Origin: an uncultured bacterium
Lineage (GTDB): Bacteria > Zixibacteria > MSB-5A5 > CAIYYT01
Direction of reading: 5' to 3'
Length of the DNA stretch: 64,000 bases
Assembly (NCBI GenBank): GCA_963726455.1
Contig: CAVSCK010000004.1
Span: 1,440,001-1,504,000, forward strand
Below the pieces are notes generated by a model that did no database searches, had not been told where the DNA came from, and saw nothing but the letters and a program-made list of their open reading frames with translations. This document shows positions 39,574-64,000 of the stretch, piece after piece. A program made the translations under genes and the position numbers. Each line of letters begins with the position of its first letter. The stretch's first letter is position 1.

Positions 39574-40719
39574 TTACATATCCGTCCGCTTGACTCTCAT
39601 CCCCGGCGGTGCTTTGTCGGCAGTACGCCCGTCGTCATGACAACTATCGCACTTGGGATTTTCGTCGTACTTGTGCTCGGCGTGACAATCAGTGCACTCA
39701 AGTTGTGAGTGAACTTCGTCGAGCTGCAGGCCGACTACGGCGTGCCTGAAATTCTCCTGGTTCCAACCAGCATGGCAATTGGAGCACATGCGGTTGAGTT
39801 TGGAGATTCGCTTTCCAGTCGGATGACAGGCCCAGCAATCAAGTTTGTTGTGATACGGATTTAGCGGCCAACCGGTCTTGTTGTGCGTGAATCCGGGACG
39901 TTCCTGGGTGTCGTGGCATTTGCTGCACTGATCCGACCGATGGCAGTCGTTGCAGATGGCATGCACCTGTTCTTGCGTCTTTTGTGTATAGGCAACCTTC
40001 TGAATGTCATGACAGTTGCCGCAATTCTCTTTTGCATGGCAGTTCGTGCACTTGAACCCGAACAGATCGACATGTTCTTTGTGCTGGAACGTCACCACCG
40101 GACCCAACTTGTACGGAGTGGTATATACTCTCTTAAGGGGCACCGTAATAACCGGGTGCGACGCGCCCATGATGTCTGTCGGATCCTTCGACGCCTTGGC
40201 AATGTCACTTCCCTGCTTCGGCAAATGGCATACGATGCACTTGGTGTCGTGGCTCCATTCGCGATGGCACGACAGGCACTGCCGATGATAAGCGCCTTTG
40301 AGATTCGGTTTACCCAGGTCGGTTGATTGCGCGTCCGTATTGTGACAATCCTTACAGGGAGGAATTACCCCTTTGGGGCTGTAATGGTGACACGTGGCAC
40401 ATTCCAGATTCATCTGTGCCATCGAGGCATGAACTTTGTGATTGAAATGGACACCCTGATATTGCTCCGACAGCTCATCCAGCAACATCGAGTCGGGCGC
40501 ATCCACCAGATTGTGCCTGCTTGTCTGATGTACCATCTGTGTGCGCGGACAGGTTTTCAAACACGGGTCATGAAAGGTCGGCACCTCGCAGGTATGACAT
40601 TGCTTGCAGTCCGACTTGGGCATGGCCGCCGATGAATTGTTTTGGCCGTAGACCGCCAGCGTCATCACTGCCGACAGCAGCAATCCCGCAAATAACGCTA
40701 ATCTATGTCGATTGTTCAT
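39574..40719 (-). CDS. Periplasmic multiheme cytochrome c (13 CxxCH; cytochrome c3/HmcA-like)
   Basis: Signal peptide; CKQCH, CATCH, CKDCH, CLSCH, CIVCH, CTNCH, CGNCH, CNDCH, CSKCH, CWACH, CSNCH, CTDCH, CDSCH; c3-type FNHKVH. Confidence 0.93.
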   Translation of the reverse strand: MNNRHRLALFAGLLLSAVMTLAVYGQNNSSAAMPKSDCKQCHTCEVPTFHDPCLKTCPRTQMVHQTSRHNLVDAPDSMLLDELSEQYQGVHFNHKVHASMAQMNLECATCHHYSPKGVIPPCKDCHNTDAQSTDLGKPNLKGAYHRQCLSCHREWSHDTKCIVCHLPKQGSDIAKASKDPTDIMGASHPVITVPLKRVYTTPYKLGPVVTFQHKEHVDLFGFKCTNCHAKENCGNCHDIQKVAYTQKTQEQVHAICNDCHRSDQCSKCHDTQERPGFTHNKTGWPLNPYHNKLDCWACHPTGKRISKLNRMCSNCHAGWNQENFRHAVVGLQLDEVHSQLECTDCHAEHKYDENPKCDSCHDDGRTADKAPPGMRVKRTDM

Positions 40720-40729
40720 TGCACCTCAC

Positions 40730-41986
40730 CTACTTCAATCCGAGATCAACGTTGGCAACTCTGACTGATTCCGTCGACCTCTTGTCCAATGGTACCGATA
40801 TCACCGGGAACGTCATCACCGCAAACCGGTACACCAGCACCAACATTGCCACCAGTCCTATCGTCACCATGAATTCGTAAGGCGACGGGAAATATGTCTT
40901 CTCCGCATAAAGCGGCTTATAAGCGATCAGGAATACGTCAATGCGGTTGAGCAAAACACCGCCGATCACCAGCGACGCCGACGTGAACAATCCCGCAATC
41001 GACCGCCGCACGCTCGGAATCGCAAGCATGATCATTGGCAGAATGACGCCTGCCGTCAGTTCCAGAATGAACATCCCCGACTGTAAACTCCCCTCGAACA
41101 CGTACGGCCAGGCGTTTCTGATCGTCAAGTCACCGATCTTGAATCCCAGGTAAATTCCGAGTAAGATCGGCGTATAGCGTGCGATAGACGATAACAGTTT
41201 TCGTTCCGGCTGGAGTTTGAACGAGCGCGATGCCAGTATCGATTCGAAAATCACCATCGGAAATCCCACCGAGATGGCCGACAGCAAGAACAGCAGCGGC
41301 GAAATCGGCGTATACCACAGCGGATGCATCTTGGTAGGGGCAATCATCATCAACGTCCCCAGCGATGACTGGTGCAGACACGACAGCACCACGCCGGCGA
41401 TGAGAAACAGCCAAATAAATTGCCTCAGGAATCGCTGGCAGAGGCGCAGCACGCCGTCGACCAGCCCGTTCAAGGGCGCAAGCAGATGCGGTAGTTTTAC
41501 GCGCCCGATGAATCTCTCCGCAACGATCGGCACGAATTCGATATACAGGACGGTCAGATAAACCATCACACACATACCGACTTCAAAAAGTACCGAATTG
41601 CCCTGCCACATATTCGGAAGCATTGGATGCCATACATTATAGTACCGTCCGAGGTCAGCCAGCAAACCGATCACTACGAACGTGTACCCCAAAAGCGCGG
41701 TTAACAATGCCGGTCGAACGACGGCGTGGTATTCTTTCTTGTGAAATATCTCAACCAGTGCCGCCGTCGTAAAACCGCCCGCCGCCAGTGCCACTCCCGA
41801 AGCCACGTCAATGGAAATCCAGATGCCCCATGGATATTGATTGGTCAGGTTGGTCGCGGCCTGCAGGCCGAAAATGAGTCGATAGATGTAAGCAAACGCG
41901 CCGACCGCCGCAATCATCGCGACAAACAACGTCCCCTGCGTGAAAAATCTCCCCTTTACCGGAGCCGGAGTCTCAAGAGTGCTCAT
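40730..41986 (-). CDS. NrfD/PsrC-family membrane subunit (HybB/HmcC-like)
   Basis: YPWGIWI..DVASGVALAAGGF, DLGRYY, SVLFEV..C, LHQSSLG. Confidence 0.9.
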   Translation of the reverse strand: MSTLETPAPVKGRFFTQGTLFVAMIAAVGAFAYIYRLIFGLQAATNLTNQYPWGIWISIDVASGVALAAGGFTTAALVEIFHKKEYHAVVRPALLTALLGYTFVVIGLLADLGRYYNVWHPMLPNMWQGNSVLFEVGMCVMVYLTVLYIEFVPIVAERFIGRVKLPHLLAPLNGLVDGVLRLCQRFLRQFIWLFLIAGVVLSCLHQSSLGTLMMIAPTKMHPLWYTPISPLLFLLSAISVGFPMVIFESILASRSFKLQPERKLLSSIARYTPILLGIYLGFKIGDLTIRNAWPYVFEGSLQSGMFILELTAGVILPMIMLAIPSVRRSIAGLFTSASLVIGGVLLNRIDVFLIAYKPLYAEKTYFPSPYEFMVTIGLVAMLVLVYRFAVMTFPVISVPLDKRSTESVRVANVDLGLK

Positions 41987-42881
41987 GGTGATCCTCCTTC
42001 TCGTCGTTCTTGTCGCGCATCGAATACATAATCAATCCCAGCAAGCCATAGAGCGCTATTGGGGGAACAAAATTCTTGAAAACGCCATGTTGAATCGATT
42101 CCGACACCGCCGGAATCGGCTTGGTGTCCAGCTTCGGCAACTCCGTGTTTACGAAATCCACCGGCGCGAGATACATCCAACTTGTGCCGCCGATCTCCGT
42201 CTCGCCATAAACATGGTCATAATATTTGGCCGGATTCAGCTTGATCCGCTCTTTGGCGACATCCAGCAGCTCCCGCCGAGTACCGAAGGTCAACGCTTCA
42301 TTCGGACAAATCGCTACGCAGGCCGGCTTCTTTCCTTCCACCAGTTTTGGCTCGCAGAAAGTGCACTTGCGCACTCTCGGAGTTAATGCATCACTGTACT
42401 CATAGGCCGGAACCTGAAATGGACAGGCCACCATGCAATACCGGCAACCGATACACTTCCAGGCCTCATAATCAACCGACCCCAACGGATTCTTGCGCAG
42501 TGCACCGACGATGCAAGCCGACACACACGCTGCCTTGTTGCAGTGCATACACTGAACTTTGATTAAATATTGTTTGCCGGTCTGATTCGGATCGACAAAA
42601 CGATTCACCACCGTGAACTGCTTGTCATCCGGCCGGCGATGCCTTTCGAATGCCGACTTATCCTCGAACTCGGCGAGTGTCTTGGTCGAAAGTTTGTGCT
42701 CGTTGTTACAGGCCCACTCGCACTTTCGACATCCGACACAGACTGCCGTGTCCACCAGCACTCCATACATCTTGTCGTAATCGGCCGCTCCCGCGCTGCT
42801 ACTGGCCATGGTTTTTCCGGCAAACACTGTTGCCGAACCGGCGGCCGCCAGTTTGAAAAAGTCCCTGCGTTTGAGACCCAT
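41973..42881 (-). CDS. Tat-exported 4x[4Fe-4S] protein (HybA/HmcB-like)
   Basis: KRRDFFK Tat motif; CVGCRKCEWAC, CMHCNKAACVSAC, CIGCRYCMVACP, KCTFC..PACVAICP; C-terminal TM. Confidence 0.92.
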   Translation of the reverse strand: MGLKRRDFFKLAAAGSATVFAGKTMASSSAGAADYDKMYGVLVDTAVCVGCRKCEWACNNEHKLSTKTLAEFEDKSAFERHRRPDDKQFTVVNRFVDPNQTGKQYLIKVQCMHCNKAACVSACIVGALRKNPLGSVDYEAWKCIGCRYCMVACPFQVPAYEYSDALTPRVRKCTFCEPKLVEGKKPACVAICPNEALTFGTRRELLDVAKERIKLNPAKYYDHVYGETEIGGTSWMYLAPVDFVNTELPKLDTKPIPAVSESIQHGVFKNFVPPIALYGLLGLIMYSMRDKNDEKEDHHEHS

Positions 42882-42927
42882 TTACGTCACCTCGCTTTGC
42901 CCCAACGGGGCTGGGCTGCGCTGTCAC

Positions 42928-42945
42928 ATGTGAATCTTTTCACAA
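42928..42945. promoter_or_regulatory. Rex/CRP-like palindrome
   Basis: ATGTGAA-TCTT-TTCACAA, 46 bp upstream of the hybA-like start. Confidence 0.7.
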
Positions 42946-43422: not shown

Positions 43423-44625
43423 ATGACTCGATACTTTTTCAGAACTGTCTTAATCTCACTCGCTGCTATTCTGATTGCAAGCGGCGTTATGGCAAGTCCC
43501 AAAAAACAATCCAAGCCGGAGCCGGTCCCGTCCCTGGTCGACTCGACTTTGCTGCGATTATTGAACTCCCTGTTCCCCGACAGTGCCGGATATACGGTCG
43601 CCGGCGCGCTCGATCCTCAGCGTCCCGGCAAGACCGACACGGATTTGCTCTTCCAGACCGCCCGAGTTGTCTGTCCCGATTTCGCCTCGCTGCAACGCGC
43701 GATTAGAACCCTCAAGGACAACGAAGAACTCAAGATCAAGAAACTGCGCTACGACCTTGACAAACCCCGTTCCGGCGACCCCGCTGGTTATCGCGGCGTT
43801 ATCGTGACTTTCGGCTGGCAGGATCAGGAGAAAGTCGCCCAGATCCTGACCTTCCAGGAACTTCGCTGGCTGCTCTGGGCGGAAACACTGCTGCCTTATG
43901 ACGCCAAATCCGAATCCAAGTCCAGCCGCGAGTATGCCATCGCCGTCGCAAATTATCTCGATACCGTCGATCACGGCTATACCTCCGTTGACGTTCCCCG
44001 GCCAAAGACCTTCGGCTTGACCGACAAATACGACTTGTTCGCCCCGTTGCCCGATGACTCGATAATTTTTCCTGCCGGCATGACCGAGATTTCGACTCCC
44101 TTTGCCCACGGAATCACTGCCTTTGTGCCGACCGATTCGAGTCTGAACCAATTCAAGTTGCTGGCACCCAATGACACGTTTGTTGACAACGACCCCGCCT
44201 TATTCCAATGGCAGTGCCGCACTTTCTTTTCCGATGGCCACAAACTCTCAGACATCAAAGAACTGACAGCTAAAGATTTTGCCCAACTCGACGCCGGCGA
44301 CTATGCCTTTGCCGTCGGTATGAGCGGCGACATTCACTACGTCAAATACACTCAGCCACACGGCGCTCGCTGGTCACAACAACTTCACGGTCTGCTCTTC
44401 CCGGAAGAACCTATTCTGACCGCCGGCGACTTCGCTATCTCTCGTGATCCCATGCCCTGCATCACGAAGATCAACATCCGCGCGCACCATTTTTCAGGCA
44501 GTGGCCAGCCGCCGACTTCTCTTCGCGCTCTGAGTGACGGTTATCTTACCACGCTCGGACACTTCTTCCAGGCGCTCGACCGGATATTCGTTCATTACCA
44601 CGCCGTTCAGATCAGCAAGTATTGA
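43423..44625 (+). CDS. Secreted hypothetical protein with degenerate RelA/SpoT-like nucleotidyltransferase segment
   Basis: Signal peptide MTRYFFRTVLISLAAILIASGVMA; ARVVC.D, PAGYRG, AQILT....W...AE pattern. Confidence 0.7.
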   Translation: MTRYFFRTVLISLAAILIASGVMASPKKQSKPEPVPSLVDSTLLRLLNSLFPDSAGYTVAGALDPQRPGKTDTDLLFQTARVVCPDFASLQRAIRTLKDNEELKIKKLRYDLDKPRSGDPAGYRGVIVTFGWQDQEKVAQILTFQELRWLLWAETLLPYDAKSESKSSREYAIAVANYLDTVDHGYTSVDVPRPKTFGLTDKYDLFAPLPDDSIIFPAGMTEISTPFAHGITAFVPTDSSLNQFKLLAPNDTFVDNDPALFQWQCRTFFSDGHKLSDIKELTAKDFAQLDAGDYAFAVGMSGDIHYVKYTQPHGARWSQQLHGLLFPEEPILTAGDFAISRDPMPCITKINIRAHHFSGSGQPPTSLRALSDGYLTTLGHFFQALDRIFVHYHAVQISKY

Positions 44626-44892: not shown

Positions 44893-44910
44893 TTGTGAAG
44901 ATTTTCACAT
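44893..44910. promoter_or_regulatory. Rex/CRP-like palindrome upstream of hemA
   Basis: TTGTGAA-GATT-TTCACAT. Confidence 0.7.
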
Positions 44911-44984
44911 CTTATGACAATCACGTGACAATCGTAATCAACCCACTCCTATTTTCTGGGCAAGTTTATGGAGATCAAACAATC

Positions 44985-46283: not shown

Positions 46284-47221
46284 TGGACAAGCTCGTCATC
46301 GGTTCGCGCGGTTCCGATCTGGCGCTTTGGCAGGCGAACTTCATCAAAGAAAACCTCGCCAAGCATACCGACGTTCCAATTGAAATCAAGATCATCAGGA
46401 CCCAGGGCGACAAGATCGATCACCTTTCCTTTTCCGAGATGGAAGGCAAGGGCTTCTTCACCAAGGAACTGGAGGACGAACTTCTCGCCGGCAGCATCGA
46501 TCTGGCCGTGCACTCACTTAAAGACCTTCAGACAACCATGCCATTCGGACTCACGCTGGGCGCCGTTTGTTTTCGTGAAGACCCCCGCGAACTGGTGCTG
46601 ATCAGGCCCGGAGCCGGCAATTCGACTGCGTTGCTCGGCGTCAAAGAAGACTCCATCGTCGGTACCAGTTCCGTACGCAGGCAATGCCAGGTGGCCAGTC
46701 TTGGCCCTTCGCTCAAGATCAAAGACCTGCGCGGCAATGTGCCGACCCGCATCCGCAAGTTGAGAGAAGGACAATATGATGCCATCATCCTGGCTTATGC
46801 CGGTGTTAAGCGGCTTAATCTTGAACTCTCCGACTTGATGACTTACGCCCTGAACACCTCCCTCTTTCTGCCCGCTCCGGGTCAGGGCATCCTCGGCATC
46901 CAGATTCGCGAGAACGATTCACCTGTGAAATCAATAGTGTCCGCGTTGGATTCCAATGACCTTCGTCAGCAGGTTGCGCTCGAGCGTGGTTTGCTGGCAA
47001 GATTCGCCGGTGGTTGTCAACTGCCGCTCGCCGCCATTTCCGAGATTACACCCGACGGCTACTCTCTTAAGGCAGTCCTGGGCGTTCATAACGGCGCCGT
47101 TTGGGGGGAATTGCGACGAGTCGAATTGACCGGCACTGATATCGAGACCATAGTAGACAGGGCGTACCAATGCCTCAGCGAGCCAAAGCCACGGCAGACC
47201 GACTCAGCCACGCTACGTTAA
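46283..47221 (+). CDS. hemC: Hydroxymethylbilane synthase
   Basis: IGSRGS.LALWQA, GKG.FTKELE, DLAVHSLKD, GTSS.RR, LRGNV.TR, GGCQLP. Confidence 0.96.
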   Translation: MDKLVIGSRGSDLALWQANFIKENLAKHTDVPIEIKIIRTQGDKIDHLSFSEMEGKGFFTKELEDELLAGSIDLAVHSLKDLQTTMPFGLTLGAVCFREDPRELVLIRPGAGNSTALLGVKEDSIVGTSSVRRQCQVASLGPSLKIKDLRGNVPTRIRKLREGQYDAIILAYAGVKRLNLELSDLMTYALNTSLFLPAPGQGILGIQIRENDSPVKSIVSALDSNDLRQQVALERGLLARFAGGCQLPLAAISEITPDGYSLKAVLGVHNGAVWGELRRVELTGTDIETIVDRAYQCLSEPKPRQTDSATLR

Positions 47222-50205: not shown

Positions 50206-51564
50206 ATGAAATCACTAGCCAGAAGACTCAGGGCGCCCAAAGGAATGGCGCTGGCATTGTTTGTTGCGATCGCGGTCGTGGCCGTCGCTCAGATAAGCTG
50301 GTGGATACTTTTTCAGGTCACAATCTCCCGCGAACAGGAACATCTCTATCGCCAGGTCGCGCAGACTTCCGCCAATCTCACGACTACCATGCTCAATCAA
50401 TGTTATGACCGCCTGGTCTCGCACGCTACGGTCATTGCATCCGACGACAACCCGCAGCACGTCAAGCGCTCATTCGATCAGCTATTGAATGATCCCGCCG
50501 TCAACGGCTACCTCATCAGCGATTCCTCCGGACAGACGATTGCCCGGGGCGGCGTGCTTGATTCATCACTCTATCTGCCGATTGCAGGCCAAGATCCGGT
50601 CGTTCTCTATCTCAATAGCCGCTATCCGATCGCGCAGATCGCCGGTGTCGCGCCGAATCTGACATTTCAGGATAACGGCAAACGCGGTGTCTACACTTCG
50701 CCCTGGTTTGATTCCAGTATGTTCGTCCTCAAGCCCGAAGTGTTGGCGACCGTCCAGAACAAGGCGTTTCATCGCATTGTCATGTTTGCCGCCGAGGGTT
50801 CCTTCTTCGTCCTCCTGACTTTGCTCGGCGCGTTTATGATCTACCGCACGCTTCGGCAAACCGAGGAACTCAAACAGCAGCAGGAAAATTTCATCCATGC
50901 CGTAACGCATGAATTCAAGATCCCCGTGGCGTCGATCAAGCTCTATTTGGAGACAATGTCCTCGCAGAAAATCGACAAGGACAAGTATCAGACCTTCATC
51001 CCGCGCATGCTCGAAGACTGCCAGCGCCTCGAACGCCTGGTCGACAACGTCCTTGAAGCCGGTCGTCTGAGTCGTCATAGTCACCATCTCAAACTGGCGC
51101 CGGCAAATCTGTCCGCCGACATCGAGGAATATCTCGAAGAGTTGCGGCCGCTTATCGAACGCAGCCACCTGAAACTGTCTGTTAATATCGAATCCGACCT
51201 GAACGTCCGCTCCGACTACCAGGCCATGCGTCGCGTCGTCTCGGCTTTGGTCGACAACGCCATCAAGTACTCGCCGGAAAATCGCCGCGAACTTACCATC
51301 ACTGCGAAACGCGTCGGTCATAAATGCCGCCTGACCTTCGCCGACCGTGGCGTCGGAATCGCTCGCGAAGAACAGGACAACATCTTCAATCGCTTCTATC
51401 GCACGGGCACCGAAAACACCCGCACCGTGAAAGGAACCGGATTGGGATTGTTCCTTGTTAAAGAGATTGTGACCGAGCATGATGGCGCCGTGGAGGTAAA
51501 ATCCGACGGCCTTGATCAGGGCAGCACGTTCGTGATCACTCTTCCATTGGAGAAAAGGTCATGA
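50206..51564 (+). CDS. Membrane sensor histidine kinase
   Basis: Two TMs around a periplasmic domain; THEFKIP H-box, DNAIKYS, DRGVGI, GTGLGL. Confidence 0.93.
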   Translation: MKSLARRLRAPKGMALALFVAIAVVAVAQISWWILFQVTISREQEHLYRQVAQTSANLTTTMLNQCYDRLVSHATVIASDDNPQHVKRSFDQLLNDPAVNGYLISDSSGQTIARGGVLDSSLYLPIAGQDPVVLYLNSRYPIAQIAGVAPNLTFQDNGKRGVYTSPWFDSSMFVLKPEVLATVQNKAFHRIVMFAAEGSFFVLLTLLGAFMIYRTLRQTEELKQQQENFIHAVTHEFKIPVASIKLYLETMSSQKIDKDKYQTFIPRMLEDCQRLERLVDNVLEAGRLSRHSHHLKLAPANLSADIEEYLEELRPLIERSHLKLSVNIESDLNVRSDYQAMRRVVSALVDNAIKYSPENRRELTITAKRVGHKCRLTFADRGVGIAREEQDNIFNRFYRTGTENTRTVKGTGLGLFLVKEIVTEHDGAVEVKSDGLDQGSTFVITLPLEKRS

Positions 51565-52277
51565 GCAAACGCATTCTTGTCGTCGAGGACGAAGAACATA
51601 TCGCCGACGGGCTGGCTATGAATCTCGAAGCCGAGGGCTACGAAGTCGTGGTCTGCGGCGACGGCAACGCTGCGCTCGATTACTACCGGAAAGGTTTTCT
51701 CGACTTGATCATTCTCGACATCATGATTCCCGGCAAGGACGGCCTCGCCGTCTGCCGCGAAATCCGGCAGAGTGGCGGACGCGTTCCGATTCTCTTTCTC
51801 ACGGCGCGTGACCGGCAGTCCGATCGCGTCGAGGGTTTCCTGACCGGCGGCGACGACTACATGACCAAACCGTTCGATTTGCAGGAACTGCTTCTGCGCG
51901 TAGCTGCCATCTTCCGTCGGCAGGTCTGGTACGGCACCGTCGAACGCGAGGAATCGCGCTACGACTGGCACGAGAATTGGATAAATTTCAAAAGCTATCT
52001 CGCGCACGGTCCCGGAGGTGAGGTCGAATTATCTCAGAAGGAATGCATGACCATGAAATTCCTGGTCGAGCATCACGACGAGGTCGTCTCTCGCGACATG
52101 ATTCTCGACGCCGTCTGGGGCTACCATGTCTACCCATCGAGCCGCACGATTGACAACTTCATCGTACGACTGCGCAAAATATTCGAGCCCGATCCTACCG
52201 TGCCGCGATACATCCATACCCTGCGCGGTGTCGGCTACAAATTCACACCCGGCGGAGAGACCGATGCCTCATTATAA
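51561..52277 (+). CDS. OmpR-family response regulator
   Basis: VVEDE, LDIMIP, FLTA, DDYMTKPF, SRTIDNFI.RLRK, TLRGVGYKF. Confidence 0.95.
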   Translation: MSKRILVVEDEEHIADGLAMNLEAEGYEVVVCGDGNAALDYYRKGFLDLIILDIMIPGKDGLAVCREIRQSGGRVPILFLTARDRQSDRVEGFLTGGDDYMTKPFDLQELLLRVAAIFRRQVWYGTVEREESRYDWHENWINFKSYLAHGPGGEVELSQKECMTMKFLVEHHDEVVSRDMILDAVWGYHVYPSSRTIDNFIVRLRKIFEPDPTVPRYIHTLRGVGYKFTPGGETDASL

Positions 52278-54678: not shown

Positions 54679-55703
54679 ATGGCTACCGCGCTCGAACGAA
54701 TTCAGGCAGTCACCGGGAACAGACCGCAGTTCGATCCGGCGCGGGAAATCTGGGGTGTGCTGTTCGTCAATATGGGTGGCCCCGAAAAAACGGAAGAGAT
54801 CAGACCCTATCTTTACAACATCTTCTCCGACCGCGCGGTTATTAACTTCCCGTTGGCGCCTCTCTTGCAGAAGCCAATGGCTCGTCTGATCTCGACACTT
54901 TCGCGCAAAAAGAGTCGCTGCACGTTACAATCTGATTGGCGGCGGTTCACCCCTGTTGAGTTATGATCGCAAGCTGGCTGACGGCGTTAAGCAAATCCTG
55001 ATACGCGAATTCTGCAACATCCGAGTCTATGTCGGCATGCGCTATATCGCAGCCCTTCATCGAAAGCCAGCTACAAGCAGCAATTTCCGATGGTTGCATG
55101 CACCTGCTGGTATTTCCCATGTATCCGCAATACTGTCTGGCAACCACCGGCACCGCTTTCGACGCCATCACTCGCTACCTTGCCGATCATTCGAGAGCAT
55201 TGTCGCTCGATGCAATACCTGACTATTATGAATCTGCCGGATACATTGCATTACTGCGCAAACGTATTGAGCAGGCATTCGCTAGGACACAAGCTGGCTC
55301 GAAAACACGTCTATTGTTCTCTGCTCATTCAGTCCCTGAAAGTATCCGCGCGGGCGGTGATCCTTACGTCAACCAGGTAACTCACACTTGCGATCTCGCC
55401 GGACGCGGTTATGATTATATGCTTTCCTTTCAATCAGCGACCGGCCCGGTGAAATGGGTCGGACCCGACACCTTGCAAACAATCGACAAGCTCGCCATCG
55501 AGGGTATCGAGCAACTCATAGTCGTACCGGTCAGCTTTGTGTCGGACAACATTGAGACGCTTTACGACATCGATATTGTCATGCAGGAACGTTGCCGTCA
55601 ACTTGGAATGAAACCGCTGATCCGCACCACCATGTTCAATGGCGAACCCGACTTCGCCGAATTCATCGCCGGCCTTGTCCGCGAGAGGATACGCACCACA
55701 TGA
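54679..55703 (+). CDS. hemH: Ferrochelatase (two +1 frameshifts)
   Basis: NMGGP (frame 1), YNLIGGGSPL..GMRY (frame 2), PMYPQY, FSAHSVP, FQS..GP..W.GP, SFVSDNIETLYDID (frame 3); extra bases ~54901 and ~55046. Confidence 0.9.
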
Positions 55704-57097
55704 CTGTCGATCACGAGACTCCGCGTATTGCGATCATCGGTGGCGGCATTTCCGGTTTGGCGTCGCTGCACTTTCTCAAACGCAAGCTTGGTGGACGCGC
55801 ACGGATTCGCCTGTTCGAGGCAGACTCACGGCTGGGCGGTACCATCGGCTCCGACCGCGTTGATGGTTATGTCTGTGACTGGGGGCCTAACGGCTTTCTC
55901 GATCGTGTCCCCTTGACTTTGCAGCTTGTCGATGAAATCGGCCTGCGGGACAAACTTCGTCCCGCTGATCCCCAGGCCGATAATCGTTTCATTTACCGGC
56001 ATGGCCGTCTGCATGCCATCAGCGCTTCCCCGATCAAGTTCATGACATCGCGGTTGCTGTCATTGCCAGGACGGTTGCGTGTGACGATGGAACCTTTGAT
56101 CAAAGCCAGACGCGACGGCGCCGACGAATCCGTGTTTGATTTTGCCGCGCGGCGTATCGGTCGCGAAGCCGCCGAGGCCATGATCGATCCCATGGTCTCC
56201 GGCATCTTCGGTGGTGATGCCAAAGCCGTTTCGCTCAAATCCTGTTTCCCTGTAATGGAGGAAATGGAACGCAATTACGGCTCCCTCTTCAAAGCGATGA
56301 TCGCCAAAAAGAAGTCAGGCAAGAACGCCGGACCTGCCGGACCTTCGGGACGGCTGACCTCGTTCAACAACGGTCTCTTTACGCTTGTCGAGCGCTTCTA
56401 CGAACTATACTCTGAACACATTCAGACCGGCACTCCGACCACAAATATCACTCGAACGCCCACCGGATATCATCTCGAATTTGGCAACGGCAGTTCCGAC
56501 ACCTTTGACGGCGTGATTATCGCAACCCCGGCCTATGTTGCCGCACATTTGTTGAAACGCTCTGATGAATCGGTCTCCGATCTGCTCAGCCAAATTCCCT
56601 ATGCGTCACTTGCCGTCTGTTGCTTCGGTTATCGCGACGACAAACGCGCGCAGGAACTCGATGGCTTCGGATTTCTTGTTCCCCGTAACGAGGGCAAACG
56701 AATTCTCGGCTCGATCTGGACATCGTCGATCTTCCGCGATCAGGCGCCAACCGGAGAAGTTCTGCTGCGCACAATGGTCGGCGGCTACACCGACCCCGAT
56801 GCCGTGCATCTTGACGACAAGGATCTGATCGCATTAGTTCACGGCGAGCTTAGCCAGATACTCGGCCTGCAAACGCAACCTGCCTTTGTGCGAATCTTTC
56901 GCTATGACAAGGGTATCCCCCAATTCATTCTGGGCCACAATGACCGGCTCCGGCAAATCGCGACACGCCTCGAATCTCTCCCCGGAATCTATCTTGCCAG
57001 CAATGCCTATTCCGGCATCGGCCTGAACGATTGCGTCACCCGCGCCGATGAAGTCACCACCGCTCTCGTTCAGCATCTCGCCTGCCCGAAGACCTAA
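55700..57097 (+). CDS. hemY: Protoporphyrinogen/coproporphyrinogen oxidase, FAD-dependent (HemY type)
   Basis: IIGGGISGL, GPNGF, GFGFLVP, IPQF..GH, GIGLNDCV; ATGA overlap with hemH. Confidence 0.93.
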   Translation: MTVDHETPRIAIIGGGISGLASLHFLKRKLGGRARIRLFEADSRLGGTIGSDRVDGYVCDWGPNGFLDRVPLTLQLVDEIGLRDKLRPADPQADNRFIYRHGRLHAISASPIKFMTSRLLSLPGRLRVTMEPLIKARRDGADESVFDFAARRIGREAAEAMIDPMVSGIFGGDAKAVSLKSCFPVMEEMERNYGSLFKAMIAKKKSGKNAGPAGPSGRLTSFNNGLFTLVERFYELYSEHIQTGTPTTNITRTPTGYHLEFGNGSSDTFDGVIIATPAYVAAHLLKRSDESVSDLLSQIPYASLAVCCFGYRDDKRAQELDGFGFLVPRNEGKRILGSIWTSSIFRDQAPTGEVLLRTMVGGYTDPDAVHLDDKDLIALVHGELSQILGLQTQPAFVRIFRYDKGIPQFILGHNDRLRQIATRLESLPGIYLASNAYSGIGLNDCVTRADEVTTALVQHLACPKT

Positions 57098-57178: not shown

Positions 57179-58003
57179 GTGCATAACAGGGTACTCCTCT
57201 ATTCTGCAGCGGCAGTGGCATTCGTGGCACTGCTCTTTCTTGGCGCCGGCCTGGGCAACAGCATTGCCTTCACCAACTTAAATCATCCCCACCGCTCTGT
57301 CGGCTGCAAGAATTGCCACGGGTTTCAAACGCGAGAGGCCGCCTCGGATTCGCTTCAAGGTCAGAAACCGGCCGCGACCGCCCAATGCCTTGAATGCCAT
57401 GCCACCGACCTGCAAAAACCCGGTTTCGCGCAGCTTTTCCACCAGCGTGGCGAGGATTGTGAACGCTGCCACAGCTTCCACAATCCGCAAGTGCTTGTGA
57501 TAAATGGAGACTCCACCGACATCGAGGTAGCCACAGCCGAGCTCTACCAATGTAGTGACTGCCACCAGACTACCACTCTCCCCGAAGTTAGTGCGGGACA
57601 TCAGGAAGCGGCGAAACTTCTGCACGGTGACACCAGGGGATTATTCCGCACCGATCCCAGCGCCTTCTGCCTGGCCTGCCACGATTACGGTGCCGTTCCG
57701 CAGGTTACGTCGAATTTAAGGCCTCCCCAGTTGCACATGGAGGCCAGTCATCCTTACGACATCAGGATCATCCCCGGCTATCGGCGCGCTGGGTCCTCCC
57801 TGAAACTGCAGGATCAGCTTGACCCAATGTACCGGCTGGTCGACGAGAAAATGACCTGTATCACCTGCCATTCCCTGGCCTCAACTAATGCCCAACTTGT
57901 GGTGGCCACAATCGACAAAGGCCTCTGCACCGGTTGCCATGATATGCAGCGTCCCGATGGCTCCTTCGCCGCCCTGTCTCTTCACAAGCAGGTCAATAAC
58001 TAG
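57179..58003 (+). CDS. Multiheme cytochrome c (7 CxxCH)
   Basis: N-terminal signal/anchor; CKNCH, CLECH, CERCH, CSDCH, CLACH, CITCH, CTGCH. Confidence 0.88.
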   Translation: MHNRVLLYSAAAVAFVALLFLGAGLGNSIAFTNLNHPHRSVGCKNCHGFQTREAASDSLQGQKPAATAQCLECHATDLQKPGFAQLFHQRGEDCERCHSFHNPQVLVINGDSTDIEVATAELYQCSDCHQTTTLPEVSAGHQEAAKLLHGDTRGLFRTDPSAFCLACHDYGAVPQVTSNLRPPQLHMEASHPYDIRIIPGYRRAGSSLKLQDQLDPMYRLVDEKMTCITCHSLASTNAQLVVATIDKGLCTGCHDMQRPDGSFAALSLHKQVNN

Positions 58004-58363: not shown

Positions 58364-58381
58364 TTGTGAAAAAAATCACAT
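58364..58381. promoter_or_regulatory. Rex/CRP-like palindrome
   Basis: TTGTGAA-AAAA-ATCACAT. Confidence 0.6.
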
Positions 58382-58459: not shown

Positions 58460-58477
58460 ATGTGAAAAGCTTCACAT
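58460..58477. promoter_or_regulatory. Rex/CRP-like palindrome
   Basis: ATGTGAA-AAGC-TTCACAT (perfect 7-bp arms), just upstream of the NHL gene. Confidence 0.7.
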
Positions 58478-58501: not shown

Positions 58502-59629
58502 ATGATGAATCAACTGCGCAGTCCGCACGAAAGACAACTCCTACGCTTCGGCTCTTCCTGTTTCACGAAGCTGCTCGTCCTATCTCTCCTAGTTCTCGCC
58601 GCTCTCTCTGCGACTACTCCGCTCTTCGCTCAGGGCAACGGCCGTTTAGTGCTGCCGGCACAGTTCGTTCGCGAACTTACTCCTCCCGGTGACGGTGGCA
58701 GCTTCCTTCGTCCCGACAAGATTTTCCTCGATAACCGTTTCAACGAAGTCTTTGTGTCCGACCCGGGATACAATCGGATCGTTGTCTTTGATACCTCCGG
58801 CCTGTACAAATTCGAATTTTCCGGCAACCAGATTTTCGGCACCGCTGATGACATTGTGGTAGACTCCGACGGCTACATTTATGTTCTGGGTTCGACCGCC
58901 GCGGGCAAGAACATCTTTGTTTTCGATTACGACGGCCTCTACCTCAAGAAGCTGGAGTTGACCGGCCTGCCCGCCGGGCAAACATTGGAAATCGATCATC
59001 TCATAATCGATGAAACCAGCACCTTCTACACGATCGACGAAGCCAAAGCGCTGGTGACTTCATTGGGCACCGACGGCGTCCTGAAAAATCAATTCCCGAT
59101 CCTGGCTGATCTCACTGACAAACTGCGGCAGGAAGCCCTCTACGGCACGCCGCAGGTTTACGGCGGCGCCATCTACATCCCGGTTTCTACCGAGGGCTCG
59201 GTGTACGTCTACGATCTCTCCGGCAACTATATTTCCAACATCGGCGTTCAGGGCACTGACGCCGGTTCGCTTAACTTCCCCGTTGCCGTCGCTGTTGCCG
59301 ACGGTGGACAAATACTCACCGTACTGGATAAACATCGCTATGTCGTCGTTTGCTACACGCTGGACGGCAAGTTCATCGGCGAGTACGGCGGCATGGGATT
59401 TAGTCTGGGCTGGTTCTACCATCCGGGCGCTTTCGCCCTCGACAAGTTCAATCGTGCCTACATCAGCCAGGTGTATCTGAATCGTGTGCAAGTCTGTGCG
59501 CTGCCCGATGCCATCATTCAGAAAGCAAAGTCACTGAACATAAAGAGTTCTCAAACACAAACTTCACCACAAAAGCTTGAAACAATGCTTAGAGAGGAGG
59601 TGATCGGGCAAATCACCGAAATCCATTGA
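58502..59629 (+). CDS. Secreted NHL-repeat beta-propeller (candidate OmcS-companion protein)
   Basis: VFVSDPGYNRIVVFD, DIVVDSDGYIYV, GSLNFPVAVAV, GWFYHP...NRVQV. Confidence 0.88.
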   Translation: MMNQLRSPHERQLLRFGSSCFTKLLVLSLLVLAALSATTPLFAQGNGRLVLPAQFVRELTPPGDGGSFLRPDKIFLDNRFNEVFVSDPGYNRIVVFDTSGLYKFEFSGNQIFGTADDIVVDSDGYIYVLGSTAAGKNIFVFDYDGLYLKKLELTGLPAGQTLEIDHLIIDETSTFYTIDEAKALVTSLGTDGVLKNQFPILADLTDKLRQEALYGTPQVYGGAIYIPVSTEGSVYVYDLSGNYISNIGVQGTDAGSLNFPVAVAVADGGQILTVLDKHRYVVVCYTLDGKFIGEYGGMGFSLGWFYHPGAFALDKFNRAYISQVYLNRVQVCALPDAIIQKAKSLNIKSSQTQTSPQKLETMLREEVIGQITEIH

Positions 59630-59673: not shown

Positions 59674-60741
59674 ATGCGTAAGGTTCTTCTCATTGCCATC
59701 TGCTTCGCCGTAGCGCTGTTTTTCAGCGGCGTAGCCTATGGTTTCCATGACGAAGGCGTGGCGCGCTGCAGTGGTTGTCATACCATGCACAACAGCCAGA
59801 ATGGCACTGCGGTAGACACCACAACCGGCCATGAAAACGGTAACGAATACCTGTTGATCAAGGCCAAGCCGTCTGACGTCTGCTTGTCATGCCACGGTGC
59901 CGAACGCGGCGCCGTATTTGGCACCGATCCGTTGGCTCCCCCGGCCGAAAAGGGCCCGGGTAACTTTGTTTTCCTTCTGGAGAACAACATTTATGATGGC
60001 CGCACTGGCACCGTCACCGGCGACGCCGCCGGTCACAACGTCGATGCCCCGTCCAGAGGCGTCGGTCCGGACGCTACCCTGAGCTCCGCCCCGGGTGGAA
60101 CTTTCCCGGCCAGTGCTATGGGTTGCTCCTCCTGCCATGATCCGCATGGCAACCAGAACTATCGTCTTCTGTATGGCGCCGGTGGCGTTGTGCAGGATGG
60201 TATCGCCACGTTCACCAGTGCTGCTCCGACCGCCGAAGGTCTTGGTTTCAGCGCCGCTGCTGAAAGCAACACCAACCACGTCGCCTACAAGGGTGGCTTC
60301 AGCGCTTGGTGCGGAAACTGCCACGGCAATTTCCATCAGGAAGCAGGCGGCAGACTTGAGCATCCGTCCGGCGAAGGCTTGGGCGGCACGATTTCCGGTA
60401 ACTATGGTCGTTACAATGGTACTGCCCATTACAACAGTGGTACTCCGGCGACCTCGTATCTGGCAGCGGTCCCGTTTGAGGATGCAGCCAATACCACCAC
60501 CTCGACTGCCGGCCCGACGGCCTCCAGCCAGGTGTCTTGCATCACCTGCCACAGAGCACATGCCACCTCAGCTCCGGATGCCGGCCGCTGGGACTTCAAT
60601 GTGACCTGGCTCTCTGACGACGGTGTTCGCTCCGGTTCCTATGCTATTCCAAATCCGTACGGTCCCGACGTGGAAATTCAGCGCTCGCTGTGCAACAAGT
60701 GCCACGTGAAGGATGCCGGCGACGTTGGAAGCAATCCGTAA
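59674..60741 (+). CDS. omcS: Hexaheme cytochrome c, OmcS-family (nanowire-type)
   Basis: RBS GGAGG; signal peptide then FHDEGVARCSGCHTMHNS, CLSCH, APGGTFPA..CSSCHDPHG, VAY.GG.S.WCGNCH, CITCHRAHA, QRSLCNKCH.KD; collinear with Geobacter OmcS motifs as recalled. Confidence 0.85.
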   Translation: MRKVLLIAICFAVALFFSGVAYGFHDEGVARCSGCHTMHNSQNGTAVDTTTGHENGNEYLLIKAKPSDVCLSCHGAERGAVFGTDPLAPPAEKGPGNFVFLLENNIYDGRTGTVTGDAAGHNVDAPSRGVGPDATLSSAPGGTFPASAMGCSSCHDPHGNQNYRLLYGAGGVVQDGIATFTSAAPTAEGLGFSAAAESNTNHVAYKGGFSAWCGNCHGNFHQEAGGRLEHPSGEGLGGTISGNYGRYNGTAHYNSGTPATSYLAAVPFEDAANTTTSTAGPTASSQVSCITCHRAHATSAPDAGRWDFNVTWLSDDGVRSGSYAIPNPYGPDVEIQRSLCNKCHVKDAGDVGSNP

Positions 60742-60834: not shown

Positions 60835-60854
60835 ATTAAATTAATCAGTAAGAA

Positions 60855-62963
60855 ATGAGACAATATTTGTCGCCATACAGACCGATAGCCATATTTGTCC
60901 GCCTTGTCGTCTGCCTGATTGCCCTGTTCCTCGCAGGAATCAGTTCTGCCGTGGCAGGAATTTCGCCCAACCTTTCCGGCACGATCAATGTGTCAGGCGT
61001 AAATTCGCTGTCCGACACACTGCACGAACAGAGTCTCAGCCAGCAGTACGCTATCTACTGGCAAAAGAATCTCTTCCCCTATGTGATGTTGCGCACCTCG
61101 GTTACTTACTTCAATTATGGCCTGAACCAAAACATCGGCGCGAATAGTTGGCGCAAAGAGTTTTCTCCGGTAGCGGAGCTGACGTGGAAGCATCCGTACT
61201 TTAGTCTATCCGGTTCGGCGCAACGCCGCCAGACCAGCAGTAACGACATGCTCACCAACCTGAACAACGATTTTCTGACTGCGAGTCTGCGCACGCGATT
61301 GGCAAATTATCCTTACATCAATGCCCAGTTTCAGCAAAGCGATATCTACAACCGCCCCGATCGCCGTGAGCGCGACACGCGGAACCGTTCGCTGATAGCC
61401 GCGACCGGCTACAGTACGCGAAGCTCGAATGCTTCTTATTCGTTTTCGCTTCGCAACACAATCAACCGCCTGGATCAACGACAACAGAAAGATTATCAGC
61501 ATTCGGTACGGCTGAATCATACCCGCAATCTGGTCGGGAAAGCAGTAAGAACAAGCGTTGGATATTCGCTGGATTATCGCACCCAGCATGATATCACTCC
61601 GGCTGCCAGCATTCTTCCTCGCGAGATCCCCGGGTTGAACGGCCTGTATGCCAACGATGCAACGCCCGACTTGGGCGCGCTTGATAGCATTACATCTTTG
61701 GCAGATGGAAATACTGCCTTACCAACGACGCCTCCGATCGATATCGGCAACGGCAACGTCAACTGGAACCTGGGCGCTGACCTCGGCGCCACGCAGACAG
61801 TCAATAAGATCTATGTCTACACCGACCGTCCCTCCGGCAATGGAGTGCGCTGGGAAGTCTTCAGGTCGGCCGACAATATCGTCTGGAATCAGGTGACGGG
61901 ATCAACGTCATTCTTCAATATCAGTTTCAGCCGCTACGAAATCAGTTTTCCCAGCGACACTACTCGCCTTATCAAGGCCGTAAATTCCGGCCTCAATGAA
62001 GTTCCGACGGTTTTTGTGACTGAACTCGAAGCGCTGGTCGAAATCGGGAACCAGCCCGATATCAAACGGGAGCAAACCATTCATCAGGCAAATTTGAATA
62101 ATACTTTTCTCTTGTCATCCAAACTTACGGCCGGTGCCGATGTCTACTTGCGCCGTGAATCGGGCAGAAGTTTGTCCGTGTTACGAAATGAGACCGATTA
62201 CGCCGCCAGCACGAGATTCAAGTTTTCCGAGGCATTACAGAACGGTGTTCGCTACGAAATCGACCTGATCAACTTTGAAAAAGGCACCCCCGATGTCGAT
62301 AAGACGTCTTCGGTGGCCTATGATCTGCAGTACAGACCAATGGAGACTCTCGCTTTTCTCTTGTCCGCAGCCAGCCGTCACAGCTATATTGGTCCGATGA
62401 AGTCCCAGGAACTCAATAATGCCATTCTGCGGGCGCTTGGCGACCCCTTCGTTCGCTTGCACATCGCGACTGAGGTTGGATACTCAGGCAACAATCTCTA
62501 CGCGGGGAATCTCAGATATAACACCTTCGTCTATAACATGTCAGTCACCGGCGGAATCTTCAGGTTCCTGGACGCCGGCGTGACTTATGGCTATCAGCAT
62601 ACTGACGACGTCAGAAACGCCTTGATACGGACCAAGAACCAATATTCCCTGCTCGTGACCTATCGGATGACGCGCCATATTCTGATGCAGGGAAACGTTG
62701 ATCTGACCCATGACTTCAACAATCGCTACATTTCCCAGGAATACCTGGTAAGCTGGACGGCCTCTCCCAAGCTCAGTCTTTCCGGTTCCGCCTATTTGAC
62801 CGAGCAGTACGGCGCTTCGCGAACCGATAGATACAATGCCCAGCTTCAATATTATGTCACCGCGCGCACGTCGCTGTTGGTGATGTATACCGAGTATGAT
62901 CTGACTCCCACTCTCGGCAATCGCACTGCCGCCATACAGGCCGGTATCAGGACTTCTTTTTGA
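60855..62963 (+). CDS. Outer-membrane beta-barrel protein with an inserted discoidin-like domain
   Basis: Signal peptide, alternating amphipathic Tyr/Ser/Asn-rich strands, terminal Phe (GIRTSF); central LGADLG..VNKIYVY..WEVFRSADN..W segment. Confidence 0.8.
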   Translation: MRQYLSPYRPIAIFVRLVVCLIALFLAGISSAVAGISPNLSGTINVSGVNSLSDTLHEQSLSQQYAIYWQKNLFPYVMLRTSVTYFNYGLNQNIGANSWRKEFSPVAELTWKHPYFSLSGSAQRRQTSSNDMLTNLNNDFLTASLRTRLANYPYINAQFQQSDIYNRPDRRERDTRNRSLIAATGYSTRSSNASYSFSLRNTINRLDQRQQKDYQHSVRLNHTRNLVGKAVRTSVGYSLDYRTQHDITPAASILPREIPGLNGLYANDATPDLGALDSITSLADGNTALPTTPPIDIGNGNVNWNLGADLGATQTVNKIYVYTDRPSGNGVRWEVFRSADNIVWNQVTGSTSFFNISFSRYEISFPSDTTRLIKAVNSGLNEVPTVFVTELEALVEIGNQPDIKREQTIHQANLNNTFLLSSKLTAGADVYLRRESGRSLSVLRNETDYAASTRFKFSEALQNGVRYEIDLINFEKGTPDVDKTSSVAYDLQYRPMETLAFLLSAASRHSYIGPMKSQELNNAILRALGDPFVRLHIATEVGYSGNNLYAGNLRYNTFVYNMSVTGGIFRFLDAGVTYGYQHTDDVRNALIRTKNQYSLLVTYRMTRHILMQGNVDLTHDFNNRYISQEYLVSWTASPKLSLSGSAYLTEQYGASRTDRYNAQLQYYVTARTSLLVMYTEYDLTPTLGNRTAAIQAGIRTSF

Positions 62964-62986
62964 TTCCGAGTGAAAGGTTTTACATA

Positions 62987-63562
62987 ATGCGTTTTACAGC
63001 CCTGCGGTCAATTTCAATACTAACTCTGCTGTTACTCCTGGTCGCCTGTTCTGGAATGGGGCCGACGGTCTTCGTCAACAAGCAGTACAATTTTAACTTC
63101 CTCGAAAAAGTTGCCGTGGTACCGTTCGAGAACCTCTCCTCCGATCAGGGCGCCGGGGCACGCATCACCCACATTTTCCTCACGGAGCTTTTGTCCACCG
63201 AGTCATTCGATGTGGTCGAGCCGGGGGAAGTGTCCAAAGCCGTCCAGAAATTTGGCGGCGGCGGAACGGCCAGTCTGACCAAAGATCAGATCGTGGAGGT
63301 CGGCAAGACTCTGGGAGTGCAGGGGATTATCCTTGGCTCCGTGAACGAATCGGCCGGCACGCGCGCCGGATCCTCACCTACTACCGAAATTACCATCAAC
63401 GCCAGAATGGTGGAGACCGAAACCGGCCAGACTATTTGGTCGGCTACGAATACTGAGGGCGGACGCGGCTTCTGGGCATCGCTCTTTGGCACCGGCGACA
63501 AGTCGGAAAGCCAATCCACCCGCAAGTGCGTCAAGCGGATCATTAAGACACTGGTCAAGTAG
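62987..63562 (+). CDS. CsgG/DUF799-like lipoprotein
   Basis: Lipobox LVAC; VAVVPFENLS, LGVQGIILGSV, ARMVETETGQTIWS. Confidence 0.82.
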   Translation: MRFTALRSISILTLLLLLVACSGMGPTVFVNKQYNFNFLEKVAVVPFENLSSDQGAGARITHIFLTELLSTESFDVVEPGEVSKAVQKFGGGGTASLTKDQIVEVGKTLGVQGIILGSVNESAGTRAGSSPTTEITINARMVETETGQTIWSATNTEGGRGFWASLFGTGDKSESQSTRKCVKRIIKTLVK

Positions 63563-63569
63563 CCACGCG

Positions 63570-64000
63570 ATGACTGCCTCCATAGTTCGCCGGATATTTC
63601 TCGTTGCCGCGTTGCCGGTTATTTCGATGATCCTCGGGGTATTCTCTTTGCCATCTGATCTCAGCGCCGCTGCGCGCATAGGAATCCTGCCGTTCGGCAA
63701 TTACACCAATACCAACTCAGCACCCGATTCGCTGACACCCCTGATCCAGGAGCAATTGACTTCGCGCGGGTTTGTGGCGGTATCGCACGACAGCATCCGC
63801 AATTTCATGCGCCACCAGCGCCTCAGAACGATGGGTATGGTTTCCTCCAAAGAGACCGAATTGCTGCGCGACAACCTCAGTTTGGATTACTTGATCACGG
63901 GCTCGCTGGACTTCTACGCGGCACAGGCCAATCCCGAAGTAGGACTTTCCGTTCGGGTAATTGATTGTCACTCGCTGGCAATCGTGTGGGCGGCGAGTCA
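63570..64000 (+). CDS. Second CsgG-like secreted protein (3' truncated; absent from ORF track)
   Basis: Manual translation MTASIVRRIFLVAALP...RIGILPFGNYT...LDYLITGSLDFY...VGLSVRVIDCHSLAIVWAAS. Confidence 0.8.
   Translation, partial: MTASIVRRIFLVAALPVISMILGVFSLPSDLSAAARIGILPFGNYTNTNSAPDSLTPLIQEQLTSRGFVAVSHDSIRNFMRHQRLRTMGMVSSKETELLRDNLSLDYLITGSLDFYAAQANPEVGLSVRVIDCHSLAIVWAAS

Follow-up and report, generated by a model that had tools for sequence, protein, structure and literature searches.

OmcS of Geobacter sulfurreducens is a hexaheme c-type cytochrome with all-histidine ligation, in which one heme ligand is supplied by a bond between subunits (PMC6584659). The accompanying Geobacter gene block has been linked to OmcS maturation and secretion (PMC12977616; PMC13194489) and includes GSU2495, a 26-heme protein (PMC12977616). 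In the sulfate-reducing partners of anaerobic methanotrophic archaea (ANME), oetABI with OmcS-like genes has been proposed to accept electrons from ANME (PMC10553843), and OmcE clusters next to resB/ccsB have been reported (PMC13712944). OmcS-type (osc) clusters are widespread, but outside Geobacter little is known of the source of their electrons or of the switch that turns them on. For heme synthesis, the hemACDBLENYH operon of Leptospira interrogans holds the kinase/regulator pair Hklep/Rrlep between hemL and hemE, a layout also noted in Bdellovibrio (PMC2266917), and HemR binds the hem-box TGACA-N6-TGACA (PMC11426443). The repressor Rex has the published operator TTGTGAA-N4-TTCACAA and controls hemA operons in Streptomyces (PMC5355995). 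Here, we describe a locus of an uncultured bacterium of the Zixibacteria lineage that joins counterparts of these systems. It occupies positions 39574..64000 of a 64,000-nt stretch of contig CAVSCK010000004.1 (assembly GCA_963726455.1, positions 1,440,001 to 1,504,000), which we call the window.

The span is made up of three transcription units: a module of an iron-sulfur protein, an NrfD-type membrane protein and a 13-heme cytochrome on the minus strand, and a heme operon and an osc-type operon, which is cut at the window end, on the plus strand (Table 1). We consider it somewhat more probable than the contrary that this is a lineage-specific composite respiratory island, in which three units under two control layers, one Rex-type and one HemKR-like, serve outward electron flow. 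An earlier note on this DNA had proposed much the same route; what it had observed is partly confirmed, and its interpretation is partly supported.

The three units are connected by one putative operator. The palindrome TGTGAA-N4-TTCACA, already seen ahead of each block in the earlier note, is indeed present at four sites in three intergenic regions, with 0.008 expected from shuffles, and its consensus equals the Rex operator as published (PMC5355995). Relatives were collected in one GTDB scan with the hexaheme, from which the best 77 distinct loci (L001-L077) of 416 confirmed stretches were taken with flanks of about 10 kb. When the pattern derived from the window was applied to the promoter regions of 69 of them, 42 sites were found in 27 regions, whereas shuffling gave 0.11 on average; the remaining 1.16 Mb contained 4 sites. 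The palindrome was kept in 25 of 41 osc-type promoter regions vs 2 of 28 others, under several phylum labels, which are themselves unreliable (sequences labelled Zixibacteria and Ignavibacteria are only 0.006 apart). The double arrangement recurs as well: pairs spaced by 93-96 bp were found in six close relatives (L001, L003, L009, L011, L021 and L066), and in L001 two palindromes also precede the orthologue of the Fe-S gene. The palindrome is thus real and conserved, which supports the co-regulation proposed before. A fifth site in the window, outside the island, lies 44 bp ahead of genes for 3-hydroxyacyl-CoA dehydrogenase and acetate kinase (hbd-ackA), a fermentation operon; therefore, judged from the sites, the palindrome marks a regulon wider than this locus.

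The heme operon would carry the second control layer. All nine genes from hemA to hemY follow one another in the order reported before, with junctions of -52 to +19 bp; hemH, however, contains two frameshifts, and the earlier description had overlooked that genes for a sensor kinase and a response regulator separate hemL from hemE. Ahead of the operon, a perfect hem-box, likewise missed before, is located 5 bp past the palindrome, which leaves 55 bp to the likely start of hemA, with 0.0007 such boxes expected in the intergenic region. A near-identical box precedes hemC, there the first hem gene, in three closely related loci (L040, L043 and L047). In the relatives' promoter regions, 9 perfect sites were found in 9 of 69 (0.03 expected), three of which belong to hemC; the osc promoter region of 6 loci without a nearby hem gene has a perfect box, on the sense strand in 3. 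Near-perfect sites numbered 25 in 19 of the 69 loci, compared with 2.6 after shuffling. The position between hemL and hemE and the hem-box suggest that the pair works like HemKR; its orthology with Leptospira HemK and HemR, judged by layout, is putative, and the regulator's nearest representatives in the searches are unnamed. In the sensor region of the kinase, the QxxWWxxFQ motif is conserved and no histidine is invariant. HisKA kinases usually carry a phosphatase Thr or Asn four residues after the phospho-His; the window kinase and those of six close relatives have Ile at this position, and those of L055 and L075 have Thr. As a side observation, hem-boxes or TGACA-N6-TGATA repeats occur in osc promoters without nearby hem genes in L020 (3460), L025 (8661), L039 (8663), L007, L014, L018 and L035, and in L018 the repeat overlaps the palindrome. 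Plasmid searches gave no match for the hexaheme or the kinase sensor and only generic OmpR proteins for the regulator, and Atlas searches for the kinase sensor and for the 400-residue open reading frame (ORF) described below gave leads under 0.9 only.

The 26 CxxCH sites counted before in three cytochromes (13, 7 and 6) were all found again. The 7-heme cytochrome sits upstream of the palindromes of the third block and only 81 bp past hemY, and therefore it probably belongs to the hem transcript; the gap between it and the NHL propeller gene is 498 bp.

The first unit had been called a HybA/HybB-like pair with a cytochrome. The likeness holds, but all NCBIfam scores are below cutoff: the Fe-S protein scored best with HmcB (323 bits; cutoff 420), followed by HybA (248; cutoff 263), and the NrfD protein scored 347 with HybB (cutoff 450) and 299 with HmcC (cutoff 550). 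Since the NrfD subunit adjoins a Tat-type subunit with four [4Fe-4S] clusters, the pair classifies as an NrfD-Fe-S quinone oxidoreductase module; no PDB relative of the NrfD subunit was found at E values up to 0.1. One stretch of the 13-heme cytochrome (residues ~100-166) is similar to the c3-type domain found in HmcA and in nine-heme cytochrome c, and 8 further hemes lie in the C-terminal half. All 13 CxxCH motifs are invariant in 46 aligned sequences, and 13 motifs were present in 112 of the 119 members listed from a family of 727 relatives. A complex prediction for the Fe-S protein with the 13-heme cytochrome scored 0.50 (best control, 0.00), with a contact agreement between runs of at least 0% and a partner pLDDT (predicted local distance difference test) of at least 67. 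In the calibration, 116 of 157 solved pairs reached the mark, as did 2 of 215 mismatched ones, and the range up to 0.60 held 18 of the 157 together with both mismatches; the prediction lends the pairing weak support and may reflect likeness to solved complexes. We propose that the module is a membrane-bound quinone:cytochrome c oxidoreductase without a catalytic subunit of its own, its three products presumably forming a complex. The Hmc complex (HmcABCDEF) was considered and rejected, with 13 hemes instead of 16, scores below cutoff and no further subunits such as HmcD, HmcE or HmcF beside it; HybAB of hydrogenase-2 and Qrc were rejected too, with no hydrogenase subunit or QrcB among the scanned ORFs of the window. 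Next to the Fe-S/NrfD module there are no genes for a hydrogenase, a molybdopterin subunit or HmcDEF, and therefore it is not Hyb, Qrc or Hmc.

The third unit agrees with an OmcS cluster, as had been claimed, in its OmcS-homologous hexaheme, its barrel and its lipoproteins; the window edge cuts it, and the hexaheme stands in the position of GSU2501 (OscC). G. sulfurreducens OmcS (6ef8) was the sole PDB match of the hexaheme (E, 1e-36). Six CxxCH motifs and seven other histidines are invariant in 42 of 42 sequences, and six motifs were found in 119 of the 120 homologues listed; the relatives number 2085 among 7994 candidates scored. Mature His16, which we take to be the inter-subunit ligand of OmcS, is conserved in the window hexaheme. 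AlphaFold2 modelled the hexaheme without heme at a pLDDT of 39, and this model was not used. Separation from paralogues of the GSU2501, OmcT and OmcJ types was judged by position, and because the position is that of GSU2501, the label nanowire is an inferred one. Polymerisation is known for OmcS alone, and the window hexaheme would be a candidate for filament formation. The barrel matched the fold of MtrB best (6r2q_B; Z 16.5, root-mean-square deviation 7.9, 415 aligned), with other barrels close behind, and it is encoded directly downstream of the hexaheme in 47 of the 77 loci; the CBM32/F5-8-like insert of the barrel holds most of the invariant residues of the family and is a candidate substrate- or surface-binding domain. 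A YVTN-type propeller between hexaheme and barrel is absent in the window, where the gap is 113 bp, and was present in 8 of 31 relatives, so that it is dispensable in this family. In the 41 relatives with at least 9 kb downstream, a SurA/peptidyl-prolyl isomerase (PPIase) gene was found in 41, a cytochrome with at least 24 hemes in 39 and a 16-heme cytochrome in 28, the remainder often being cut by the flank; thus, by analogy, the cluster most likely continues past the window with SurA, 26-heme and 16-heme genes. Two variants were seen in passing: a second hexaheme paralogue encoded in opposite orientation at the distal end of the osc operon (L054, L063, L065, L068 and L070), and OmcS-like genes alone with no osc block in the flanks (L038, L045, L050, L052, L053, L057, L059, L060, L062, L071 and L077).

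Linkage of the blocks in relatives was partial. Among the 31 osc loci whose upstream flank reaches 9 kb or more, hem genes were found there in 4 (L040, L043, L047 and L055), the same kinase in 7, fused ccsBA in 3 and an NrfD gene in 2, only one of which, in L001, is orthologous. L001 has the layout of the window minus the hem genes, that is, an orthologous Fe-S/NrfD pair (68% and 72%), the kinase/regulator pair and osc. The Fe-S/NrfD pair of L015 (41% and 38%) is not orthologous, has GcvH-like neighbours (by eye) and a sigma-54 regulator, and was counted apart. The junction from hemL to the kinase and regulator is kept in L055 and L075, and contig CAZPKG010000007.1 (L040 plus L075) brings together, within some 36 kb, osc, a full hem operon, the kinase/regulator pair, ccsA/resB and a second OmcS-like gene. 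That locus, whose hem operon includes a gene for a 272-residue CcsA-like protein, is more complete than the window in its maturation genes; L041 shares this frame, with separate ccsA/resB, but lacks hem genes. In four loci labelled Acidobacteriota (L046, L049, L051 and L058), fused CcsBA (system II) is divergent from osc with the palindrome in between. In the window itself, no ccm or ccs gene was found among the main ORFs or by tblastn with the CcsBA and CcsA-like proteins of relatives, as stated before.

Shared contigs were also inferred from exactly equal contig sizes of homologues, with about 0.02 matches expected per pair type. As indirect support, this gave 5 hexaheme/HemH pairs, which cover 5 of the 10 close HemH homologues with a contig of at least 10 kb, 2 hexaheme/13-heme pairs and 1 HemH/13-heme pair; two of the contigs concerned measure just 17 and 24 kb, and otherwise the same contig need not mean adjacency. 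The module of L003 lies at a distance of more than 10 kb. In a quick tree, from which a motif and length filter had dropped L017, L037, L038, L045, L048 and L069, the hem- or kinase-linked main hexahemes all fall into one 14-row group (Shimodaira-Hasegawa-like approximate likelihood ratio test [SH-aLRT] 92, unstarred). With 31 rows, the hem-or-kinase label changed 3 times compared with 9.3 when shuffled (0 of 500), and the hem label alone 3 times compared with 4.8 (11 of 500); since kin share labels, the test shows clustering and not co-evolution. These data suggest that the linkage of hem genes or the kinase/regulator pair to osc is old within one hexaheme subclade, has often been broken and is not general to OmcS-type clusters. 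The nearest named homologues of the hexaheme, HemH and the 13-heme protein are labelled Zixibacteria for the most part.

Table 1. Features of the studied span and of one palindrome outside it (positions are those of the window)
Feature	Position	Strand	Evidence or remark
Fifth palindrome, outside the island	20706..20721	.	position weight matrix score 18.5, next best 9.9
13-heme c-type cytochrome, signal peptide, third module gene	39574..40719	-	CxxCH count, family searches
NrfD/PsrC-family membrane subunit (HybB/HmcC-like), putative quinone site	40730..41986	-	Pfam NrfD; at least 8 hydrophobic segments
Twin-arginine 4x[4Fe-4S] subunit (HybA/HmcB-like), putative Tat export	41973..42881	-	Pfam/NCBIfam and motif searches
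Rex-type palindrome TGTGAA-N4-TTCACA	42929..42944	.	48 bp before the Fe-S gene
Secreted 400-residue protein, no family	43423..44625	+	no Pfam/NCBIfam match; 0/77 loci; Atlas leads at most 0.85
Rex-type palindrome before hemA	44894..44909	.	motif search
Perfect hem-box TGACA-N6-TGACA (HemR-type direct repeat)	44915..44930	+	sole perfect copy in the window
hemA	44986-46283	+	Pfam, NCBIfam
hemC	46283-47221	+	Pfam, NCBIfam
hemD	47170-47931	+	Pfam, NCBIfam
hemB	47924-48907	+	Pfam, NCBIfam
hemL	48900-50183	+	Pfam, NCBIfam
HisKA sensor kinase, two transmembrane helices, HemK-like by position	50206..51564	+	Pfam; motif QxxWWxxFQ...MFxxEGxFF
OmpR-family response regulator, HemR-like by position and hem-box	51561..52277	+	Pfam
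hemE	52264-53286	+	above NCBIfam cutoff
hemN	53289-54674	+	above NCBIfam cutoff
hemH (ferrochelatase), in three frames	54679..55703	+	frameshifts near 54,900 and 55,048
hemY (protoporphyrinogen oxidase family)	55700..57097	+	TIGR00562 above cutoff
7-heme cytochrome, N-terminal hydrophobic anchor	57179..58003	+	homologues in the locus in 13/31 osc loci
Rex-type palindromes before the osc-type operon, 96 bp apart	58365-58380, 58461-58476	.	motif search
6-bladed NHL-type beta-propeller, first gene of the osc-type operon	58502..59629	+	in 25/31 osc loci
OmcS-family hexaheme, 355 residues, directly upstream of the secretion block	59674..60741	+	6ef8 match
Outer-membrane beta-barrel, 702 residues, CBM32/F5-8-like insert at residues ~255-396	60855..62963	+	AlphaFold2 pLDDT 90.9
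CsgG/LpoB-like lipoprotein	62987..63562	+	family searches; in 51/77 loci
Second CsgG-like protein, cut by the window end	63570..64000	+	in relatives then SurA/PPIase, 26- and 16-heme cytochromes

Taken as one system, the island would work as follows. When acceptors run short and NADH/NAD+ is high, a Rex-type repressor would leave the three promoters. The Fe-S/NrfD module would then oxidise menaquinol and pass electrons along the 13 hemes to periplasmic multihemes, from where they would reach the OmcS-family hexaheme, exported through the barrel, and finally an outside acceptor; the osc half-cluster would fold and export that cytochrome. At the same time the hem operon would raise the heme supply, tuned by its own two-component system, which is assumed to bind the hem-box before hemA and set the heme flux. 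The island probably exports electrons.

Several findings weigh against such an island. No rex gene was found among the scanned ORFs of the window or, by motif search, in the loci of the relatives, and 17 of 84 half-sites have the CRP-type T. The window kinase lacks the Thr that the phosphatase reaction of HemK, triggered by 5-aminolevulinic acid, requires (PMC11426443), and its sensor is longer than that of HemK (His235 vs His98). The osc promoter of the window has no hem-box, and neither have those of five of the six closest relatives. The receiver domain of the regulator was no closer to PDB 4q7e, presumably HemR of L. biflexa, than to unrelated regulators, and 4q7e ranked near the bottom among the 60 of 83 matches listed. 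The hemH gene is frameshifted twice, whereas 17 homologue queries for neighbouring genes each align in one frame. Hem genes are missing within about 10 kb upstream in 27 of the 31 osc loci, and six close relatives hold the kinase/regulator pair beside osc without them. No contig size is common to the hexaheme, HemH and 13-heme lists, and no other locus shows all three blocks, the 10-kb flanks being too short for a module 17-20 kb upstream; conservation of the three-block arrangement is, from these loci, under-tested and not refuted. The refuting case set out in the earlier note is thus neither established nor wholly dispelled.

The same genes could carry electrons inward: Fe(II), minerals or a syntrophic partner would supply them to the OmcS-like protein and the conduit, and the module would reduce menaquinone. 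The closest named families of the module are HmcB/HmcC and HybA/HybB, and Hmc and Hyb usually feed periplasmic electrons inward; in addition, the oetABI type of cluster has its proposed role as acceptor of ANME electrons (PMC10553843), and Zixibacteria RBG-1 was interpreted as an Fe(II) oxidiser (PMC3903129). We nevertheless hold inward flow to be quite unlikely. With a Rex-type box, induction is expected at high NADH, a state that calls for an electron sink and not for a donor (PMC5355995); this box also lies before hbd-ackA, and the argument for RBG-1 rested, in that account, on the absence of extracellular cytochromes (PMC3903129), which are present at this locus. If, instead, the three blocks were independent members of a global anaerobic regulon that became neighbours by chance, the module would serve other partners, the hem genes would supply all cytochromes and the hexaheme would be an OscC/GSU2501-type substrate, perhaps with no wire at all. 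This would fit the orthologous Fe-S/NrfD pair within 10 kb in only 1 of 31 osc loci, the few members of the large 13-heme family on the same contig as hexaheme homologues, the palindrome at an unrelated operon, the unrelated ORF between the blocks and the position of the hexaheme. Yet each pairwise linkage recurs independently (L001; L040, L043, L047 and L055; the same-contig pairs), and heme-attachment genes flank osc in other lineages (L041, L046, L049, L051, L058 and L075), which makes a chance neighbourhood improbable.

Two further readings are compatible with the composite island, with inward flow or with a chance neighbourhood. The signals could be read by other regulators, that is, the palindrome by a factor of the CRP/FNR family and the direct repeat, as an inverted Pho-type box, by a PhoB-like regulator. 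TGTGA-N6-TCACA is also the CRP core, and the hem-box, read as its reverse complement, looks like a Pho box. Moreover, 17 sites fit TGTGAT-N4-ATCACA with one mismatch, and the best NCBIfam matches of the kinase and regulator are PhoR/PnpS and YycF/PhoB, all below cutoff. But position 6 of the half-site is A in 63 of 84 and the spacer is A/T-rich, both as in Rex; the FNR-type motif was rejected as not enriched (1 vs 2.2); the pair stands exactly at the position of Leptospira HemKR (PMC2266917); and the box tracks the first gene of the hem operon in two gene orders. We therefore regard other regulators as unlikely. The heme block, on the other hand, could be decaying, with hemH a true recent pseudogene in an operon on its way to the hem-less state seen at this locus in the six relatives that carry the palindrome pairs. 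Two +1 frameshifts that lie some 150 bp from each other in a single gene, with none in the neighbours tested, would agree with this. Of the close hemH homologues, 22 of 24 are full length. However, all three pieces are 62-74% identical to intact homologues and show no excess divergence, and no damage is seen in the remaining eight hem genes, the box or the regulators. The source contig is 1.9 Mb long, and long-read assemblies often contain indel errors in clusters. The frameshifts are thus an assembly error or a recent inactivation; hemH may be broken, but decay of the whole block seems rather doubtful.

The surroundings of the island are ordinary. Its left border is formed by a pair of genes for a bacterial alpha-2-macroglobulin and PBP1C (31566-39437), unrelated to it, and positions 1-24885 hold housekeeping genes, including those for a TonB-dependent receptor, a TPR/GAF sigma-54 activator, etfB, rnc and a fatty-acid synthesis cluster, and also an NHL/FlgD/dockerin secreted protein. 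The 400-residue secreted ORF within the span is unrelated to the blocks and probably a passenger. No tRNA or Rfam matches were found in the window, and promoter and terminator scans of it stayed at chance level.

The locus offers a candidate inner-membrane donor for an OmcS-type cluster and two testable operators, and it connects a putative nanowire system with a HemKR-type layout of the heme operon, as studied in Leptospira. If the 26- and 16-heme genes found downstream in relatives are added, the heme sites of the island would number about 68, and coupling to heme supply would be a concrete, checkable design; the joint arrangement suggests how cells match heme supply to the building of electron wires. 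In addition, uncultured sediment lineages join the candidates for long-range electron transfer. As a speculation that we hold tentatively and do not expect to be true as a whole, one OmcS-family subclade may descend from an ancestral supply-chain island that combined heme synthesis, heme attachment, wire export and a dedicated Fe-S/NrfD/13-heme quinol oxidase replacing ImcH, CbcL and Ppc. Its gating would have been joint, by Rex for acceptor shortage and by a HemKR-type system for heme flux, the latter also controlling the wire operon in some lineages. If so, nanowire production outside Geobacter would gain a defined cis-regulatory code and an inner-membrane donor.

Every block of the locus has a known counterpart; the joint arrangement and the regulatory signals are new. 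In the literature searched, nothing was found that links a hem operon, HemKR or Rex to OmcS or osc; Shen et al. 2025, which reportedly defines the osc cluster and its distribution, lay outside this search and may list such loci. The module resembles those of the HmcABC, HybAB and Nhc types and Geobacter Cbc4, which we take to be GSU0068-70, in combining a Tat-exported four-cluster Fe-S protein, an NrfD protein and a multiheme cytochrome with a c3-like domain. It differs from Hmc and from Nhc in that the cytochrome has 13 hemes, not 16 or 9, and in having no HmcDEF, hydrogenase or molybdopterin neighbour. As in the Rex regulons of Streptomyces (rex-hemACD) and Staphylococcus, the operator precedes heme-synthesis and respiratory genes, but there is no rex at the locus and the targets include an osc-type operon, unseen in the literature searched.

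With Leptospira hemACDBLENYH, the heme operon shares the gene set, nearly the same order, the kinase/regulator position between hemL and hemE and TGACA-N6-TGACA before hemA. It differs in the order hemH-hemY (hemY-hemH in Leptospira), in the added Rex-type box and in the cytochrome operons joined to it, and its kinase differs from HemK in the longer periplasmic sensor and the Ile at the phosphatase Thr position. Finally, like osc of G. sulfurreducens (GSU2504-GSU2493) and oetABI, the third unit has an OmcS-family hexaheme followed by a large barrel and two lipoproteins, and the loci of relatives also share SurA/PPIase and the 26- and 16-heme cytochromes with the Geobacter cluster. In contrast to Geobacter, there is one hexaheme (355 residues vs 407 mature) instead of omcS-omcT-GSU2501, the flanks hold a hem operon and an OmpR-type pair instead of the sigma-54-type GSU2506/2507, and Rex-type boxes lie upstream.

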